Shown here one piece after another: positions 1-22,110 of a stretch of DNA of 64,000 nt; within the stretch, counting starts at the first letter, position 1, and every line of letters starts with the position of its first letter. The notes below the pieces were generated by a model. It did no database searches. It was not told where the DNA came from and saw nothing but the letters and a program-made list of their open reading frames with translations. Location: the NCBI GenBank assembly GCA_963770945.1, contig CAVYRP010000002.1, forward strand, positions 381,778 to 445,777. Direction: 5' to 3'. Made by a program: the position numbers and the translations under genes. The DNA is from an uncultured Bacteroidota bacterium (GTDB taxonomy: Bacteria > Bacteroidota > Ignavibacteria > UBA10030).

Positions 1-1700
1 CATTAACAGTACAAGCAAACAATCAGCAAGGAAACCCATTGCCAGGAGCACAAGTAATTCTACAAACACCATCAGGAACACTGAAAGGAACAACAAACAG
101 CACAGGAATAGCAACATTCGAGGATGTAAACGGAGCATCAACAATCACAATGGCAGGAGCATCATACATAGGAGCATCACAATCAATAGCAATAGACGCA
201 AGCAAAACATTCAACGGAGTAATAATAGACGGAGCAGGAATAACGGCACAGTTACTAAAAACAACAAACGGAGTAAACAGCATAAGAAAAAATCCTAGAC
301 TATTCGACATCACGTCACCAGATCCAGTAATTCCTTAGACGCATCAGACTTCGGAACAGCAGATTCAACAACAATAATGGGATACATTGCACAACTGAAT
401 GCCTCTTGGAACATTTACGTACCAGGAAAAGTAAATATGGGAATAGACAGAGGAATAACACTAAAAAGAACAAGCGGCCCAGTCTATAGAACTACCGTCA
501 CACCGCAAGGACAAGACATACTAAACAGCACTTGTCAGTTAAAACCAGATTTATTAGATTATTTTATAGATCATGAATTGTTTGCACACGCAATATGTCA
601 GTTTGGCGATCCAACTCCGCCGGAAACTGTCGGTTATAGTCCGAGCATTTTCAACAGCGACCATATATCGCCGAATGCAACAGATATTGCTTATAGAAAG
701 TTGGGATACACGCTGAAATTTTAAGACAGACTGATAAACAATATTTCGACATGACAGACTTCAGCGATGCCATAACAACAGTTACGAATAATGCTCCATC
801 ACAATCATCAATAACAAATCCGATAAACGGTGACAATACAGTAGATGCACGAGCAGCAATGACACCAACATGGACTCCATCAACAGATGCTGATGGAGAT
901 TGGGTAAGGTACAAAATGCACTTGACAGGCAGCGACGCAAAACTAGATACGATAATGAAAAACATCAACGCAACAATGCTAACATTACCTGCAGGAACAT
1001 TAAAAGACAACGTAACATACGCATGGACAATAGCGGCAACAGACAACGACAAAGAAACTATATCAAGCACATCAACATTCAAGACAATATCACACACAAC
1101 ACAATCGCCACCAATAGTAGCAAAAGCCCTACCTGACACATCGTTTACAAAGAACTCAACGAACAACACAGTATCATCAAACTTAAAGAACAACTTCTAC
1201 TCAGAAGGAAGAATGACATTCACATACACACCAAACCCGAACCTAGAACAAAAACATAAGCAACGACTCACTAATAATCACACCAAAACAAGCATATGAA
1301 GGAAAAACAAGCATAATAGTATCGGCAACAGACACAATAGGACAATCAATAGCAGACACAGCAGACATAGAAATAAAAGGAAACAACGCAGTAGAAATAC
1401 CAACAAACAATGTACCTAAAGAATTCACACTAGGACAAAACTATCCTAATCCATTCAATCCATCTACAAATATTACATTCTCGATTCCAGCAAACCTTGT
1501 CAAGGTTGGAGCCTTGACAAGGTTAATATACGTGTGTATGATGTGCATGGAAGAGAAATTGCTGTCTAGTGAACGAAGAAAAACAGGCAGGAGAATATCA
1601 AGTTGAATTTAATTCTTCACATTTGCCAAGCGGAGTGTATTTTTACCGGCTCTCAGCTGGCAAGTATGTTGATACTAAGAAAATGATATTGGCAAAGTAG
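1..1700 (+). pseudogene. Large cell-surface protein with a type IX secretion C-terminal sorting domain. The 5' end is outside the window. The reading frame is broken about 5 times, at roughly 338, 724, 1250, 1493-1524 and 1567.
   Basis: Successive open frames are 39-338, 377-724, 751-1299, about 1247-1520, 1522-1568 and 1569-1700. The translation contains CarboxypepD_reg-like and Ig/Fn3-like low-complexity repeats (GAS, TTN). The 3' end encodes a canonical Por_Secre_tail: LGQNYPNPFNPSTNITFSIPA...RVYDVHGREIAV.VNEEKQAGEYQVEFNSSHLPSGVYFYRLSAGKYVDTKKMILAK*. The stop codon is TAG at 1698-1700. Confidence 0.6.
1493..1524. repeat. 32-bp perfect palindromic element, copy 1 (aaccttgtcaagg-ttggag-ccttgacaaggtt), inserted inside the T9SS CTD coding sequence.
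   Basis: Arms are 13 bp with a 6-nt loop. 32 is congruent to 2 mod 3, which matches the observed frame change. Deleting 1493-1524 in silico gives ...FSIPANIRVYDVHGREIAV..., an intact CTD. Confidence 0.75.
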
Positions 1701-1701
1701 G

Positions 1702-2476
1702 CTAATTACCCTTGTCAAGGTTTAGAACCTTGACAAGGTTATCACAATTGCTCTCTCCCTTTGCTGCTTCAAACATTACCAACGCACCTGCCACAGAAGC
1801 ATTCAGCGATTCAATCTTTCCATGCATCGGTATTTTTACCAAAAAGTCGCACTTTTCTTTGACTAATCTGCGATCCCTTTTCCTTCGTTTCCAACAACGA
1901 TTGCCAGCGCTCCGCGATAGTCATGCATAGTACAGTTTGTCACTTTCCATTTCCGTGCCTACAATCCAGACTCCGGCTTTTTTCAGTTCGTCAAGCGTCT
2001 GTGCAATATTTGTGACACGCGCAATCGGAAGATGTGCTGTAGCGCCTGCTGATGTCTTGACAACGGTGGAATTTACTGACGCGGCATTGTGCAGCGGAAT
2101 AATGACTCCATGCACGCCGGCACATTCAGCAGAACGAATCAGCGCTCCAAGATTGTGCGGATCTTCAATTTCATCGAGAATAAGTATAAACGGCGGTTCA
2201 CTTTTTTCTCTGTGCAATGGCAAGAATTTCTTCCATCTCGACATATTGGTAGGAATCGATTATTGCAATGATACCCTGCGCCTGAGTGTCACCGGCTAGT
2301 TCCGCAAAACGTTCTTTATCGGTATCTTTTACGGGAATAGCGAGCTTTCGTGCAAGCTGTTTTATTTGATCGATATGGCTGCCGGATGTGCCGTGCAGAA
2401 TTAGAATTCGTTCTATCGGCTGGCGTGATTTAAGAGCTTCCAGAACCGGCTGTCTGCCGACGATTAGATTGTCCAT
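1702..2476 (-). CDS. rlmB: 23S rRNA (guanosine-2'-O)-methyltransferase RlmB (SpoU/TrmH family), frame-disrupted.
   Basis: The N-terminal part reads GRQPVLEAL...ILILHG. The SpoU motif is [29 protein letters not shown]. The C-terminal part reads ...[46 protein letters not shown]. These parts lie in three or four different frames, so there are 2-3 indels. Confidence 0.75.
1708..1740. repeat. 33-bp palindromic element, copy 2 (acccttgtcaagg-tttagaa-ccttgacaaggtt), inside the 3' end of rlmB.
   Basis: It has the same arm sequence as copy 1 and a 7-nt loop. It lies in frame within the RlmB C-terminus, adding the residues [11 protein letters not shown]. Removing it would leave RlmB ending ...[12 protein letters not shown]. 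Confidence 0.7.
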
Positions 2477-2477
2477 T

Positions 2478-3302
2478 TTATTTCGCTTCTGATGTCAGGG
2501 CCGGTTTAGTAAATTTTCGCCAGCCAATAAATCCAAGCGCGATGATTACTAGTGAAATAAGCTGTGCTTCGCTTAAACCAAAAATAAATCTTGGATTCGG
2601 ACGAAGGAACTCTATAATAAATCGTTCTATACCTGCCAGCATCAAGTAAATCATAAAAAGTTTGCCTGTCTGCGGTTGTTTTCTTTCTGATGCTCCAAAG
2701 GAACCAGCATATCAATGCGCAGATGATGAATTCATAGACCGGTGTCGGGTGACAGAGAATATTATCAGGAACTATTCCTCCCGGAAACTGGCCGGTAATC
2801 TCAGGAAAATCTCTGAATGCGACCGAGGGAGGATAAGTTCCGTTCGAATAATTTGTTCCCCATGGAAGTGTTGTCGGGAAACCGTAGTCGCCGTCACCTG
2901 CAAGGTGGCATCCGATGCGACCAATTCCATAACCGAGAATAAGGCCGGGCGAAATGGCATCGGCGATAGTTAAAAATTTTATTCCTTTCTTCTTTCCATA
3001 CAAATAAACGGAGAACATGCAAGGATAAATCCGCCGTAATATGTTAATCCGCCGGGATTGAATATCATACCTAAAGGATCGATAATAAAAGACGACCAGT
3101 TTTCAATTACATAAAATATCTTTGCACCTGCAATTCCGGCAACCAGGGCAATGATTGTAACATTGTTGGCGATGTTCGGATCAAGTTTGCGGCGTTTAAA
3201 CTCGCTGACGAACAGATAACTCCCGATGATAAATCCGAGAGCAAGCATTAATCCGTAACCGTAAACAGTAAAAGGACCGATTTGGAAAAGTCGTGGACAC
3301 AT
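2478..3302 (-). CDS. lgt: Prolipoprotein diacylglyceryl transferase Lgt, frame-disrupted (about 2 indels).
   Basis: N-terminus reads MCPRLFQIGPFTVYGYGLMLALGF. The signature is GRIGCHLAGDGDYG. The true C-terminus ...QTGKLFMIYLMLAGIERFIIEFLRPNPRF...* lies in another frame. The gene ends 1 nt before the rlmB ATG. Confidence 0.75.
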
Positions 3303-5662: not shown

Positions 5663-8200
5663 TTACAAATCCTCCCGTTGGCCGCCTACAATCCATTGTT
5701 GAATAAGGGCTTCATACTCGTTTACAAGACGTTCGGCTACGGCTCTATCGCTCGATTCTGCGTTAATATGAAACATTGGCCGCGCACTATCCGGATTCAG
5801 TAAAATTGACGTATGCTCCCCGAGATTGGGAGGATAAAGTTTAATTCCTTCAATTAGATCCCGGGGAATTTGTTCCGATTGTTCTGTAAGTTTGCGTAAA
5901 ATGCGCCCTTTTGTATGCCAAGGGCATGAGATATTTTTCTTGACGAAATGCAGCCGCGGCGTTTCTTTATCGAGCTGACCGATTCGTTTTTTTGTTTTTG
6001 CAATGCATTCAAGCAATTTTGAAATAGAATACATCCCATCGGAAGCAAAAAGGAATTCGTTGAAGATAAATCCGCCTTTTGTTCCGCCGACGAATTTGAT
6101 CTGTTTGTCTGATGCAGCGTTCATCAGAGCAAGATGACTGTCGCGTGTCTTAACGACTTCCAAATGGAACTCTTCTGCAATGAGATCGATTTCCCCGCTC
6201 GCTGAGATCGGTACTGCAATCTTTGTAATATCTTTTTGAGAGAGAACTAGGAATTTTAACATCAGCGTCAGCAAACGGTCGTTGTCGATTAGATTACCGT
6301 GCTCATCGATAATAAATATCTTCTCTGCTCCGGCATCAAACATACATCCAATATCATATTTCAATGAAGTTACAACATATGCCAGTTGACGCAATGATTC
6401 TTCAAATTCTTCTTTTGTTCTTGTAATTTTTCGACTGTCGAGATATGCATTGAGGGCAACCACTTGAACGTTCATATTACCGAGTATGTTCGGGAAAATA
6501 GTGGAAGCGATTCCGTTCGAATAATCAATAACTAGTTTCAGGCCTGCCGCTTGAATAGCTTCAATATTGAGTGTTTCCAGTCCCCGCTGTATATAACTCT
6601 CTGTCGTACGTTCAGGGAATGAAATTGAACCGACCTGGTTGTGATGAGCCCGGTTAAAGTCTTCGCCGAAAAACAACCGTTCCATGGATTTTGTTTTATT
6701 TGACGGCAGGTCCTTCCCCTGCTGGTCGAAGAAAATGATGTCGGAACTGTTTCTATCAAATGGAGATTTACGGACATGAATCCCTCCGCGTTCTTTTCCG
6801 GTCTGCAATTCGTACCGGACGATCGGAATTGAAGTAGTGCGTAGATCGATACAGTGAACTCCGGCAGACATGAGTCCGGACATAATCGCACGGTTTATCA
6901 TCCTGGATACATTGTCCGAATCACGGCTTGTGACAACAGTAGAGCCCGCTCCGACAAGCGCTCCAAATGCGGCTCCCAATTTAGCTCCGAATTCCGGACT
7001 GATTTCTATATTGGAAAGACCGGTGACGCGGGCGTCTGTAAAGAGTTCCCGCAGCCATTTATCTTCCCGCACTAGACTGCGTGTTACGATAGAACCTTCT
7101 TCGATGTTTTTATTCGGCCAAATTTTAATATTTGAGAGCAGCTTGCTGCGCTTTCCTATAGTACATGAATCGCCGATGAAAACATTTTCAAGAATTGTAA
7201 CATCTTCATTGATGGTACATTTGGATCCAATCACATCCATAGATAATTCGGAACGTGAGTCGATTTTCGATTCATTCCAAATGATTGAATTTCTAACTAC
7301 GGTGCCGGGAAAAATTTCACAATTGTCGCCGATAACGGAATTACTGATAACTACTCCATTATGTATGCGGCAGTTCTTTCCAATGATAATTGTCCCGGTA
7401 AGATGACGCGGATCGGCTTCGACTATCGTACTTTCGCCGACAATTAGATTTTCCTTCTTAGTTCCCTCAACATGCAGTTTTACATCGCCGCGGAGAGCGT
7501 CCATATGTGCATCCTGGTACTCGTTTAGGCTGCCGATATCCTTCCAGTACCCTTTTGCGATATAACCAAAGAGGCCAAGATCTCGTTTTAGGAGAATGGG
7601 AAATAGATTCTTACTAAAGTCGAATTCCTGTTTTTCAGGAATGAGATCCAGTATCTCAGGCTCTATTATATAAATTCCCGTATTGATTGTGTCGCTGAAT
7701 ACTTCTCCCCACGATGGTTTTTCCAGGAAACGGGCAATTTTTCCGTCTTCTTTTGTTAAAACAACTCCATATTGGAGTGGATTTGTTACTCGGGTAAGCA
7801 GCAATGTAGCTTTTGCTTTTCTTTCTTCGTGGAAGCGAATAGCGGCTGTCAAATCAAAATCGGTAAGAACATCTCCGCTAATTATCAGAAAACGCTCATC
7901 TAAAAAATCTTTTGCATTACGAACACTTCCCGCTGTTCCATAATCTGCTTCTGCTTTGCGATACTGCATGTTGATGCCGAAGGCGCTGCCGTCTCCGAAA
8001 TAACCTGTGATGGCATCCGGCTGATAGAAGAGCGTGGAGACGATATCTTTCATATTGTGCGATTTAAGCAGTTCAACAATGTGTTCCATAATAGGCTTGT
8101 TGACCATAGGAACCATCGGTTTTGGAATATCGCTGGTAAGGGGCCGTAAACGTGTGCCAAACCCGCCAGCCATGATGACAGCTTTCATGAGCACTTCCAA
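5663..8200 (-). CDS. Bifunctional mannose-1-phosphate guanylyltransferase / phosphomannomutase (NTP-transferase + left-handed beta-helix + PGM/PMM domains).
   Basis: 845 aa. N-terminus reads MKAVIMAGGFGTRLRPLT. It is followed by hexapeptide repeats and then a phosphohexomutase region. Confidence 0.8.
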   Translation of the reverse strand: MEVLMKAVIMAGGFGTRLRPLTSDIPKPMVPMVNKPIMEHIVELLKSHNMKDIVSTLFYQPDAITGYFGDGSAFGINMQYRKAEADYGTAGSVRNAKDFLDERFLIISGDVLTDFDLTAAIRFHEERKAKATLLLTRVTNPLQYGVVLTKEDGKIARFLEKPSWGEVFSDTINTGIYIIEPEILDLIPEKQEFDFSKNLFPILLKRDLGLFGYIAKGYWKDIGSLNEYQDAHMDALRGDVKLHVEGTKKENLIVGESTIVEADPRHLTGTIIIGKNCRIHNGVVISNSVIGDNCEIFPGTVVRNSIIWNESKIDSRSELSMDVIGSKCTINEDVTILENVFIGDSCTIGKRSKLLSNIKIWPNKNIEEGSIVTRSLVREDKWLRELFTDARVTGLSNIEISPEFGAKLGAAFGALVGAGSTVVTSRDSDNVSRMINRAIMSGLMSAGVHCIDLRTTSIPIVRYELQTGKERGGIHVRKSPFDRNSSDIIFFDQQGKDLPSNKTKSMERLFFGEDFNRAHHNQVGSISFPERTTESYIQRGLETLNIEAIQAAGLKLVIDYSNGIASTIFPNILGNMNVQVVALNAYLDSRKITRTKEEFEESLRQLAYVVTSLKYDIGCMFDAGAEKIFIIDEHGNLIDNDRLLTLMLKFLVLSQKDITKIAVPISASGEIDLIAEEFHLEVVKTRDSHLALMNAASDKQIKFVGGTKGGFIFNEFLFASDGMYSISKLLECIAKTKKRIGQLDKETPRLHFVKKNISCPWHTKGRILRKLTEQSEQIPRDLIEGIKLYPPNLGEHTSILLNPDSARPMFHINAESSDRAVAERLVNEYEALIQQWIVGGQREDL

Positions 8201-20716: not shown

Positions 20717-20918
20717 GGTTTTCCGAATAGCCGGGGAGGAAAGATGAATATTTTTTGGGGAAGTAAAAACATATAATGATTTTTAACTAACGCCGGTGGT
20801 GGCAGCATCATCGGCGTTTGTTGTTTAGTCTTATCAGCAGGCGATGATATATATCTTCGCCTGCTTGCGTTATTAAGGATTTGCATTTTTACTGTTTGCA
20901 GTTTAATTTGTCGTCGTA

Positions 20919-21530
20919 ATGCCTATCGCGCCAATCGTATATCCATTGCATCGTAACTCACAGAGACGAATCTATGAGGAAGGGGCGAGTTATTTCATTA
21001 CTACGGTTACTTACGATCGATATCCATATTTTCAAATACCTTTGCTTTCCGAACTTTTTATCAATGATTTATTGTTTGCAAGAGATCTTAAACAATTTAA
21101 ACTGCATGGTTATGCCGTTATGCCGGACCACGTGCATCTTTTGATCACGCCATCGGTAAAAGCGAATTATTCAGAGGTAATGCGGTCTCTTAAAACAAAT
21201 TATGCTCGAGATGCAAACGATATTATGTTTGATAGAAAGACAAATATCCAATCTGAAGGCGACGTGGCGCCACGTCGCCTTCAGATACATGCAAGACATG
21301 CGGAGTCCTCTTTTCCCGAATATCGTCGACGTTTTATTGATACTTATGGTCCTAACCATAATATTCCCTTTTTTAAATGGAGAAAATCCTTTCGAGATCA
21401 TATAATCCGTGGTGATAAAGACTTTTCAAATCATCTCGAATACATATTTAATAATGCAATGAAACATGCCCTTGTCGAAGAACCGAGAAAATGGAAATGG
21501 ATGTGGGTAGAAACTATGGATAATCAATGA
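20919..21530 (+). mobile_element. REP-associated tyrosine transposase (RAYT; IS200/IS605 Y1 HUH family TnpA).
   Basis: 203 aa. The HUH motif is MPDHVHLLITP. The C-terminal region reads FKWRKSFRDHIIRGDKDF..YIFNNAMKHALVEEPRKWKWMW. The 32-bp perfect palindrome at 21253-21284 lies inside the ORF in frame. Confidence 0.75.
21253..21284. repeat. 32-bp perfect GC-rich palindrome ctgaaggcgacgtggc|gccacgtcgccttcag (REP-like hairpin).
   Basis: Read from the sequence. It encodes SEGDVAPRRLQ of the RAYT. Confidence 0.8.
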
Positions 21531-21531
21531 T

Positions 21532-22110
21532 ATGGATTATCATTGTAGAAAGCGAACATTGGGAAATATTGCAGCATATTTCAAATATCAATCGACGAAA
21601 TTGATAAACGAATTACGGGATACATCGGGTGTGAAGGTATGGCAGCGAAACTATTATGACCGGATTATTCGTAATGAAAAAGAATTACAGTATATACAGG
21701 ATTATATAGTCAATAATGTAATCGCATGGGCATTTGAAAAGGAGCATTCGGAAAATATTCCATTATAAATACGAATACAGGCGACGTGGCGCCACGTCGC
21801 CTTCAGATACATGCAAGACATGTGGAGTCCTTTTTTCCCGAATGTCGTCAACTTTATTAATACTTATCGTCTCAACCATAAAATTCCCATTTTTTAAATG
21901 GGCAAAATCCTTTCGAGATCACATTATCCGAAGGGTAGGAGCGAGGTCACCTCGACCCTACGAAAGCGAACATCGGGAAATATTGGCAGCATATTTCAAA
22001 TATCAATCGGCGAAATGAAAATGGATGCGGGTAGAGTCGATAGAAAGTCAATAATATCGATATTAATCGCAGAGATGAAGCGGAAAGGCCATAACCATGT
22101 TGTGTTTTGA
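21532..22110 (+). pseudogene. RAYT remnants with a second copy of the REP-like palindrome. Segments of roughly 21253-21604 are re-duplicated at roughly 21779-22060, with deletions.
   Basis: Fragment 21532-21768 encodes ..VWQRNYYDRIIRNEKELQYIQDYIVNNVIAW, a RAYT C-terminal region. The palindrome recurs at 21779-21806. A second FFKWAKSFRDHIIR-coding fragment lies at 21880-21930. The repeat gtagaaagcgaacattgggaaatattgcagcatatttcaaatatcaatcg occurs at about 21545 and again at about 21958. Confidence 0.55.

Follow-up and report, generated by a model that had tools for sequence, protein, structure and literature searches.

Two palindromes in an Ignavibacteria contig as probable members of a compact REP family associated with RAYT genes

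Repetitive extragenic palindromic (REP) sequences, the REP doublets known as REPINs and the tyrosine transposases associated with REPs (RAYTs) are well known (PMC2817692, PMC3116915, PMC5581495). Here we describe two palindromes, designated copy 1 and copy 2, near the left end of a 64-kb stretch of contig CAVYRP010000002.1 (assembly GCA_963770945.1, positions 381,778 to 445,777) from an uncultured Bacteroidota bacterium of the class Ignavibacteria; this whole stretch is referred to as the window. Both are very probably members of a compact REP family tied to one clade of RAYTs, with copy 2 at the site of a cluster of RAYT gene and hairpins (a REPtron) next to rlmB and copy 1 within the coding sequence of a type IX secretion system (T9SS) sorting domain. 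REPs with a RAYT are a familiar class of repeat; the form found here is compact, low-copy, untagged and little described.

The closest described systems are REPs and bacterial interspersed mosaic elements (BIMEs) with their RAYTs, such as yafM of Escherichia coli and the REPtrons of Pseudomonas and Stenotrophomonas (PMC2817692, PMC3479197, PMC6006769). Like these, the family to which the window palindromes belong consists of an apparently dispersed hairpin palindrome of 20–40 nt that is mostly extragenic and 3′-biased, flanks a usually single-copy Y1/HUH gene, leaves no target-site duplication and forms variable-spacer arrays around the RAYT. It differs from them in having no GTAG/CGTC tag, a length that is fixed at 33 nt (perfect stem of 15 bp, loop of 3 nt), arms that are themselves palindromic, a low density of approximately 4 per Mb at the sampled loci, the same core across phyla and a RAYT that scores under the NCBIfam cutoff. 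REPINs (Bertels and Rainey 2011, PMC3116915) are similar in that two inverted short palindromic units form one hairpin, singlet remnants occur and a RAYT is associated. The 3-nt spacer of the window family is far shorter than theirs, however, its total length is 33 nt and its populations are much smaller. The REPINs of Pseudomonas measure approximately 70–110 nt. Palindromes that lie in frame in functional genes and add a short peptide have been described as Rickettsia palindromic elements and as intragenic REPs (Di Nocera 2013, PMC3733652). The Rickettsia elements differ in size from the window family, in which the insert is exactly 11 codons. They are approximately 100–150 bp long. The ends of IS200/IS605 elements share the Y1/HUH transposase fold and subterminal hairpins recognised on single-stranded DNA, whereas in the window family the hairpin disperses alone, without multiplication of the transposase gene.

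Architecture and distribution of the palindromes

Copy 1 (32 nt) was found to be AACCTTGTCAAGG-TTGGAG-CCTTGACAAGGTT, with 13-bp arms that pair without mismatch. The first-pass annotation had called both copies perfect palindromes, which holds for copy 1; copy 2 in the register given there, ACCCTTGTCAAGG-TTTAGAA-CCTTGACAAGGTT, has one mismatch in its left arm ACCCTTGTCAAGG and is perfect only in another, better register, CCTTGTCAAGGTT-TAG-AACCTTGACAAGG (1710–1722 and 1726–1738), with 13 perfect pairs and the 3-nt loop TAG. Each arm is itself a palindrome centred on the W of the 11-mer CCTTGWCAAGG; the two arms therefore differ only at W and are at the same time inverted repeats and direct repeats identical at 14 of 15 positions. 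The 11-mer occurred four times in the window, in each case at copy 1 or copy 2, and when one mismatch was allowed there were six matches against 0.6 expected, a number that none of 100 shuffles reached. A 15-mer search of the window allowing up to three mismatches revealed no credible copy beyond these two. Folding as single-stranded DNA gave stems of 13–14 bp for both copies (−13.4 to −14.6 kcal/mol, z = −6.2 to −7.5), and an Rfam covariance-model scan between 1300 bp and 1900 bp returned chance-level matches only (E ≥ 0.28).

One genome per species was scanned with the pattern CCTTGWCAAGG-N1-15-CCTTGWCAAGG. This revealed at least 120 loci in several phyla, including complete genomes, and all family counts given here are among the matches listed. 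Alignment of the 99 copies with a 7-nt spacer showed the element to be sharply bounded at 33 nt, as A-N-CCTTGTCAAGG-TT-[YNR]-AA-CCTTGACAAGG-N′-T. Position −2 was A in 90 of these copies and position +2 was T in 89; positions −1 and +1 were complementary in 90, with all four bases in use, and beyond this region pairing fell to background (25–42%). There was no conservation beyond ±2 and no conserved tetranucleotide outside the element. The flanks were complementary and not repeated, with no direct target-site duplication, in agreement with the first-pass annotation, in which no obvious one was seen. In 125 of 127 copies the central bases of the arms were complementary (T followed by A or the reverse), which shows that the arms are inverted and not direct repeats. 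Taken together, the sharp bounds, the covariation of −1 with +1 and the complementary arm centres argue for a hairpin and not for two operators. The family unit is a 15-nt near-palindrome, AACCTTGWCAAGGTT. What is dispersed is an inverted doublet, in which 3 nt separate two such units; in single-stranded DNA or RNA this doublet forms a hairpin with a stem of 15 bp and a loop of 3 nt.

Chryseobacterium and other Weeksellaceae accounted for the majority of the loci; the remainder came from further Bacteroidota, one Kryptoniota metagenome-assembled genome, Anaerolineae (Chloroflexota) and Actinomycetota. Several genomes contributed between two and five loci, for example three in Chryseobacterium sp. 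CBSDS_008 and five in Amycolatopsis sp. NPDC051903. At least 111 of 129 copies were outside long open reading frames (ORFs), and for most of the 18 copies flagged for ORF overlap, either the copy preceded the true start or the ORF was a spurious one of high GC content. A rough gene call placed 73 copies between tandem genes, 20 between convergent genes, four between divergent genes and four inside ORFs, and the median distance was 73 nt to 3′-ends compared with 138 nt to 5′-ends. A mostly extragenic, 3′-end-biased placement is the pattern described for REPs (PMC3733652). The DNA flanking 113 loci without RAYT (850 kb) contained three further doublets (approximately 4 per Mb) and three singlets, a low density that suggests, as a rough extrapolation, tens of copies per genome. 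A scan of 2.9 million viral contigs returned six matches to the doublet, which is thus not mainly phage-borne.

The copies from Actinomycetota (L023, L068, L092, L108 and L111 of Amycolatopsis sp. NPDC051903, L004 and L008 of Umezawaea, L012 and L040) had the same 11-mer arms, a longer conserved loop (~CnGGAAAGCGTG) and 10–12 bp of additional copy-specific stem, and these may represent a different element. Three of the Amycolatopsis copies (L023, L092 and L111) were located no more than ~60 nt from contig ends.

Association with RAYT genes and the rlmB locus

Clustering of the ORFs near the hairpins revealed one recurrent family, present at 7 of the at least 120 loci: L009, L017 (Kaistella), L031 (C. 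schmidteae), L034 (Anaerolineaceae), L052 (Moheibacter), L054 (Chitinophagaceae) and L083 (Kryptoniota). Together with L213 and L214, two close relatives of the window in which the gene is beside rlmB, this gave nine loci where a RAYT is accompanied by the same hairpins, located just 5′ and/or 3′ of the gene, and bore out the link to RAYTs suggested in the first-pass annotation. The encoded proteins (170–205 amino acids) are of the HUH/Y type with the motifs YHxYNRG, PNH[YF]H and YIH[LRQ]NP, the latter two of which were invariant in the RAYT alignment (A3). They scored 20–23 bits against Pfam Y1_Tnp, and a profile of the clade had E. coli TnpA-REP (4ER8, E = 6e-6) as its sole match in the PDB, with the HUH and YIxxNP motifs aligned. 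Some homologues carry the JGI name RayT. The RAYTs associated with the CCTTG core (L083, L009, L054, L213 and L214) were mutually nearest, at 54–77% identity, and their next neighbours were accompanied by one-base variants of the core; this is consistent with co-evolution of REP and RAYT.

A metagenome scan with the RAYT protein alignment returned 581 relatives, and flanks were analysed for the 66 loci that had both. Strong hairpins were present on both sides in 24 of these and on one side in 11, and in 21 loci the two hairpins had a 10-mer in common. Stems of 15 nt and loops of 3 nt were modal; the sequences were lineage-specific, for example AACCTTCGCAAGGTT, AGGTGACWGTCACYT and AGAAACCWGGTTTCT. 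A further array was observed in L009 (388–643), directly upstream of the RAYT, where three doublets, each followed by a degenerate doublet, form a BIME-like array with a period of 112 bp.

The signature NH[YF]H / FQ / Y[IV]HLNP was assigned by Quentin et al. 2018 (PMC6006769) to TnpA-Y1 subclass 2.1, in which they found no REPs; subclasses 2.1 and 2.6 of that study are groups 1 and 5 of Bertels. Compared by printed motifs alone, the NHYH, FQ and YIHLNP of the L083/L213-type proteins match the subclass 2.1 signature. That subclass differs, however, in being reported as REP-less, in having a C-terminal helix-turn-helix and in its mean length of 238 amino acids (approximately 186 for the hairpin-linked RAYTs). 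Subclass 2.6, which is rich in Bacteroidetes and was reported with "atypical secondary structures", has a signature resembling, again by printed motifs, the YIH[QR]NP of the Flavobacteriia-type proteins, but its supplement lists GCTG-tagged hairpins of 9–10 bp, and an identity of these structures with the 33-nt element was therefore rejected. RayT genes have been annotated in Chryseobacterium without mention of repeats. No description of the 33-nt element was found in the literature searched, which is not proof of absence, and when full texts were searched for the 11-mer, spelled as DNA and as RNA, only unrelated eukaryotic primers and guides were returned.

In L213 and L214 (HisS 85–86% identical to that of the window) the RAYT is on the same contig as hisS-lgt-rlmB and directly beside the 3′-end of rlmB. 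The order in L214 is a sigma-54 regulator, a hairpin, a gene of 220 amino acids, a hairpin with a singlet, the RAYT, another hairpin with a singlet and the 3′-end of rlmB, and in L213 it is an array of hairpins and singlets, the RAYT, a hairpin, a gene of 230 amino acids, a hairpin and the 3′-end of rlmB. All hairpins of these two loci are AACCTTGTCAAGGTT-NNN-AACCTTGACAAGGTT, a REPIN-type doublet with AACCTTGTCAAGGTT and AACCTTGACAAGGTT as its arms, and singlets are found in L121, L213 and L214. That of L121 (HisS 90% identical) is a single unit one base past the rlmB stop; L124 (HisS 88% identical) has no unit past this stop. In a five-way alignment copy 2 occupied the same position as the rlmB-side units of L213, L214 and L121. 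There is no RAYT beside rlmB in the window, where a T9SS cargo gene with its stop at 1698–1700 is found instead, and copy 2 looks like a flank of an ancestral REPtron of which the RAYT gene is not present here.

The first-pass annotation had placed copy 2 in the coding sequence of rlmB, to which it was thought to add 11 residues. The end of rlmB in the window reads GGGAGAGAGCAATTGTGATAACC, and L121, L124 and L213 have an additional A at this point (GGGAAGA). The RlmB of these relatives ends in ...AAKGR* (L121), ...AAKGRKKV* (L124) and ...AAKGRKS* (L213), and that of L214 also ends a few residues past GR. When the A was restored at ~1756 bp, RlmB ended in ...AAKGREQL followed by TGA TAA, with the TGA one base before copy 2 and the TAA overlapping it. 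The frame runs through copy 2 because of the 1-nt deletion, which has no counterpart in the three aligned relatives; with the base restored the stop precedes copy 2, which is probably extragenic. Judging from this alignment, the 11 additional residues are most likely an effect of the frameshift and the placement within rlmB was not upheld.

The leftmost 3.3 kb of the window is rich in frame breaks. The minus-strand genes rlmB and lgt are each spread over three frames, and upstream of the sorting domain the plus-strand T9SS cargo gene is split over several. Compared with L124, rlmB and lgt (1700–3020, minus strand) contain six frameshifting indels, at 3018, 2675, 2210, 1925, 1872 and 1756, and there are none in the adjacent hisS or in a gene of 133 amino acids. 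These indels may be a local assembly error or a real decay of two normally essential genes. Given so many breaks in the region, a frame jump beside a hairpin is weak evidence. Synteny with L121, L124, L213 and L214 was observed to break exactly at copy 2; in the relatives a sigma-54 response regulator is convergent on rlmB, accompanied or not by the RAYT cluster, a position that the T9SS cargo gene takes in the window.

Copies within coding sequences

Copy 1 is situated within a type A sorting domain, with FSIPA before it and NIRVYDV after it (Table 1). The element was absent from 118 of 120 homologues of this domain, and the stretch is therefore still to be regarded as an insertion. Variants reconstructed in different ways scored 46–56 bits against TIGR04183 and PF18962. 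Deletion of the whole of copy 1 gave 48.6 bits (TIGR04183) and 50.6 bits (PF18962), and retention of the in-frame insert of 11 residues gave 46.3 bits and 51.2 bits. When one 15-nt unit was kept the scores were 52.5 bits and 55.4–56.1 bits, approximately 4–5 bits above those of the full deletion. The spacing from a conserved P to VYD was 8 residues in 76 of the 101 homologues, from the 120, that could be scored; it was 4 residues after deletion of all 32 nt and 9 residues with one unit kept. The first-pass annotation had stated that removal of each copy restores an intact gene and that deletion of copy 1 gives a textbook C-terminal domain. Neither statement could be maintained: the deleted form is four residues short of the usual eight, scores lower than the form with 15 nt kept and still contains the frameshift at ~1567 bp. 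The frame jump had also been ascribed to the length of copy 1, as 32 is 2 modulo 3. By comparison with the family, however, copy 1 is the 33-nt form with one nucleotide missing, through loss or error.

One homologue, P0133 on L125 (also L126), contains the element in frame as NLVKVETLDKV (AACCTTGTCAAGGTTGAGACCCTTGACAAGGTT, 33 nt). Aligned with that of L125, the window sorting domain is identical in 84% of columns (blastn gives 74.5% over 259 bp), and copy 1 differs from the L125 element by one gap and one substitution, both in the loop. The flanks differ by indels of 12 nt and 18 nt, the window domain has one base fewer near 1567 bp, a 1-nt frameshift that persists after removal of copy 1, and the proteins upstream of the two domains are unrelated. 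The two elements may be one old shared insertion or two nearby insertions. It had been anticipated that an orthologous gene with the same stretch as conserved coding sequence would speak against an insertion; L125 with its in-frame copy comes near to this, although 118 of 120 homologues do not have the stretch. Copy 1 is a real intragenic copy and not a clean, recent insertion. Of the earlier view that both copies were inserted into coding sequence, the part concerning copy 1 thus stands, and copy 2 is probably extragenic; the description of the elements as recently mobile is backed only by presence/absence differences among relatives.

Two of the three frames of the consensus element are open in each orientation, encoding NLVKVxNLDKV and TLSRxxTLTR, and the third contains TGA. 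A second 33-nt copy was found in frame inside carB of Frigoriflavimonas asaccharolytica (L028, 1723–1755), where it is read as TLSRFKTLTR; an alignment with E. coli CarB showed a gap of exactly 11 residues at the element. The RAYT genes of L052 (2779–2807) and L031 (~6390–6418) contain a third hairpin, which is degenerate in L031 and in frame in L052 (translated as SLVKVSTLDKA). The length of 11 codons and the two open frames per orientation would make a copy tolerable inside the sorting domain. REP insertions inside genes, RAYT genes included, have been reported for other REP classes (PMC3733652, PMC6006769). At the position of the intragenic hairpins of L052 and L031, the RAYT of L017 (Kaistella) has a diverged stretch of similar length.

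Table 1. Coordinates of the features at the left end of the window
Feature	Position (bp)	Strand	Remarks
REP copy 1 (probable)	1493..1524	.	32 nt, AACCTTGTCAAGGTT-GG-AGCCTTGACAAGGTT; inside T9SS sorting-domain coding sequence
REP copy 2 (probable)	1708..1740	.	33 nt, AC-CCTTGTCAAGG-TTTAGAA-CCTTGACAAGG-TT; in the interval where the T9SS cargo gene and rlmB converge
T9SS type A C-terminal sorting domain coding region (QNYPNPFNP...MILAK*)	1436..1700	+	interrupted by copy 1 and a 1-nt gap at ~1567
rlmB (SpoU-family methyltransferase)	1742..2476	-	frameshift-split in assembly; inferred true stop TGA 1744-1742
1-nt deletion site	1756..1757	-	GGG-AGA vs GGGAAGA in relatives; L124 pairwise and five-way alignment

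Weighing of the explanations and significance

The assignment of both palindromes to a RAYT-associated REP family draws on a hairpin architecture with covariation, a distribution like that of REPs, the hairpins on the flanks of RAYT genes and the presence or absence of the element at an orthologous site. By analogy with E. coli TnpA-REP and with IS200/IS605, the RAYT would bind the hairpin on single-stranded DNA, cut beside it and copy or move it without a target-site duplication. Singlets could arise by deletion between the two arms, which as direct repeats are identical at 14 of 15 positions. Copy 2 would be the hairpin at the place where relatives have their REPtron, directly 3′ of rlmB, and copy 1 would have come to lie in the loop between the first two strands of the sorting domain. 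As there is no GTAG guide, recognition may, speculatively, rest on the stem itself, which is the same two-fold symmetric duplex as the single unit. A secondary role as an RNA 3′-end hairpin is possible.

Several results weigh against this assignment. The hairpin-linked RAYTs scored 44–59 bits against NCBIfam REP_Tyr_transpos (NF047646), under the cutoff of 80 bits, which indicates a divergent RAYT clade, and a tblastn search of the 64-kb window with these proteins revealed no member of the clade. There are only two copies in the 64 kb, and the density of the family is far below that of classical REPs. No 5′ tag like the GTAG/CGTC of canonical REPs was found at the foot of the hairpin in the 99 aligned copies, and removal of copy 1 leaves no clean empty site. 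Additionally, the neighbours of the Actinomycetota copies, among the listed loci, include no common gene family and no nearby RAYT.

It is unlikely that the hairpins are instead terminators or stabilisers of mRNA 3′-ends which evolved locally for the cargo gene and rlmB and are not mobile repeats. The position of copy 2 would suit such a role, as it lies between convergent genes, one base past the inferred rlmB stop and 8 nt past the cargo stop, and so would the stable folds of both copies and the closeness of the family to 3′-ends rather than 5′-ends. However, a terminator scan between 1300 bp and 2000 bp gave no terminator-like site and neither copy is followed by a T run on either strand, in agreement with the first-pass view that these are not ordinary terminators; the same 33-nt sequence is present at at least 120 loci in several phyla and flanks RAYT genes, and copy 1 and the CarB copy are inside ORFs. 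Termination or stabilisation could be a secondary effect of a REP. A dimeric regulator bound to duplex DNA was also considered, with each site as a pair of 11-bp operators (CCTTGWCAAGG, centres 17–18 bp apart) and TTGACA as a −35 box. Every arm is two-fold symmetric, a promoter scan scored TTGACA-17-TATGAT at 1514–1542 as 11/12, and lone units exist after rlmB in L121 and in the arrays of L213 and L214. Arm complementarity, the covariation of the flanks and the gene context led us to reject this, and we regard it as very unlikely: the arm centres are complementary and not identical in 125 of 127 copies, −1 and +1 covary to keep pairing in 90 of 99, just four of the classified copies are between divergent genes, and no regulator gene recurs next to the element, whereas the Y1 transposase does. 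The 33-nt element in frame inside CarB and the sorting domains also counts against paired operators.

That the stretch in the sorting domain is native coding sequence with a coincidental likeness to the rlmB-side hairpin, or that the palindromes are artefacts of a noisy assembly, is hardly credible. The same 33 nt are in frame in the L125 sorting domain, and frameshifts are numerous over the first 3.3 kb of the window. Against this, the 8-residue spacing without the stretch is kept by 118 of 120 homologues, and the identical element occurs in many independent assemblies, complete genomes included. Equally hard to credit is an origin as a miniature inverted-repeat transposable element (MITE), derived by deletion from an ordinary insertion sequence of the DDE type and bounded by terminal inverted repeats and duplications of the target site. 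The elements are small, palindromic and dispersed, as a MITE would be; their flanks, however, are complementary with no direct target-site duplication, 33 nt leave no internal sequence, and the only recurrent neighbour gene encodes a Y1/HUH and not a DDE transposase. Of the earlier description as a REP/MITE-like mobile hairpin, we therefore retain the dispersed REP-type family and not the MITE.

Other features of the window were also noted. Weak tblastn matches at 21.1 kb were rejected as a RAYT of the hairpin clade, as they belong to a different, canonical RAYT gene (20,919–21,530, plus strand; 109 bits against NCBIfam REP_Tyr_transpos, above the cutoff). This gene contains a perfect palindrome of 36 bp in frame (21,251–21,286, ATCTGAAGGCGACGTGGC|GCCACGTCGCCTTCAGAT, read as SEGDVAPRRLQI) where the other RAYTs of alignment A2 have a gap. 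The segment 21,257–21,380 is repeated in degenerate form at 21,779–21,900, with a palindrome at 21,779–21,802, and a further RAYT-like C-terminal fragment lies between the two. Approximately 55 nt upstream of the canonical RAYT start is a near-perfect palindrome of 30 bp (20,836–20,865, AGCAGGCGATGATAT|ATATCTTCGCCTGCT), which differs in sequence from the one inside the gene. The body of the T9SS cargo gene (1–1440, plus strand) has A at 52–68% of third positions in three of its four ORF segments and at 39% in 377–724, compared with 22–30% in other genes of the window, and an AT skew of up to 0.35; the composition returns to normal at ~1441 bp, where the sorting domain starts. Pfam gave only weak matches to this body (Big_1, CarboxypepD_reg and Cadherin_5), which looks foreign or modular.

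As a more far-reaching reading, we put forward tentatively that the family is an undescribed class of REP, both untagged and compact. This class would comprise a fixed 33-nt double palindrome with the core CCTTGWCAAGG conserved in sequence, with an adjacent RAYT, in at least three phyla (Bacteroidota, Kryptoniota and Chloroflexota, plus the lineage of the window, labelled Ignavibacteriales or Bacteroidota). Its RAYT clade would match the signature of a subclass reported as "REP-less", and its length of exactly 11 codons, with two open frames per orientation, would let it persist in essential genes such as that of CarB, in T9SS sorting domains and in its own transposase gene.

Under the assignment to RAYT-associated REPs, two odd palindromes are explained as ordinary REP biology, and two misreadings are corrected: the 11-residue tail of RlmB is a frameshift effect, most likely, and excision of copy 1 fails to restore the sorting domain cleanly. 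Outside Proteobacteria, the family provides an example of a REP-RAYT system that is low-copy, has an unusually regular architecture of 33 nt and is conserved in sequence across phyla. It is of use in annotating genomes of Bacteroidota, Ignavibacteriota and Chloroflexota, in which such hairpins are otherwise called terminators or translated as spurious peptides, and it provides a small substrate for the question of how RAYTs recognise REPs without a GTAG guide.

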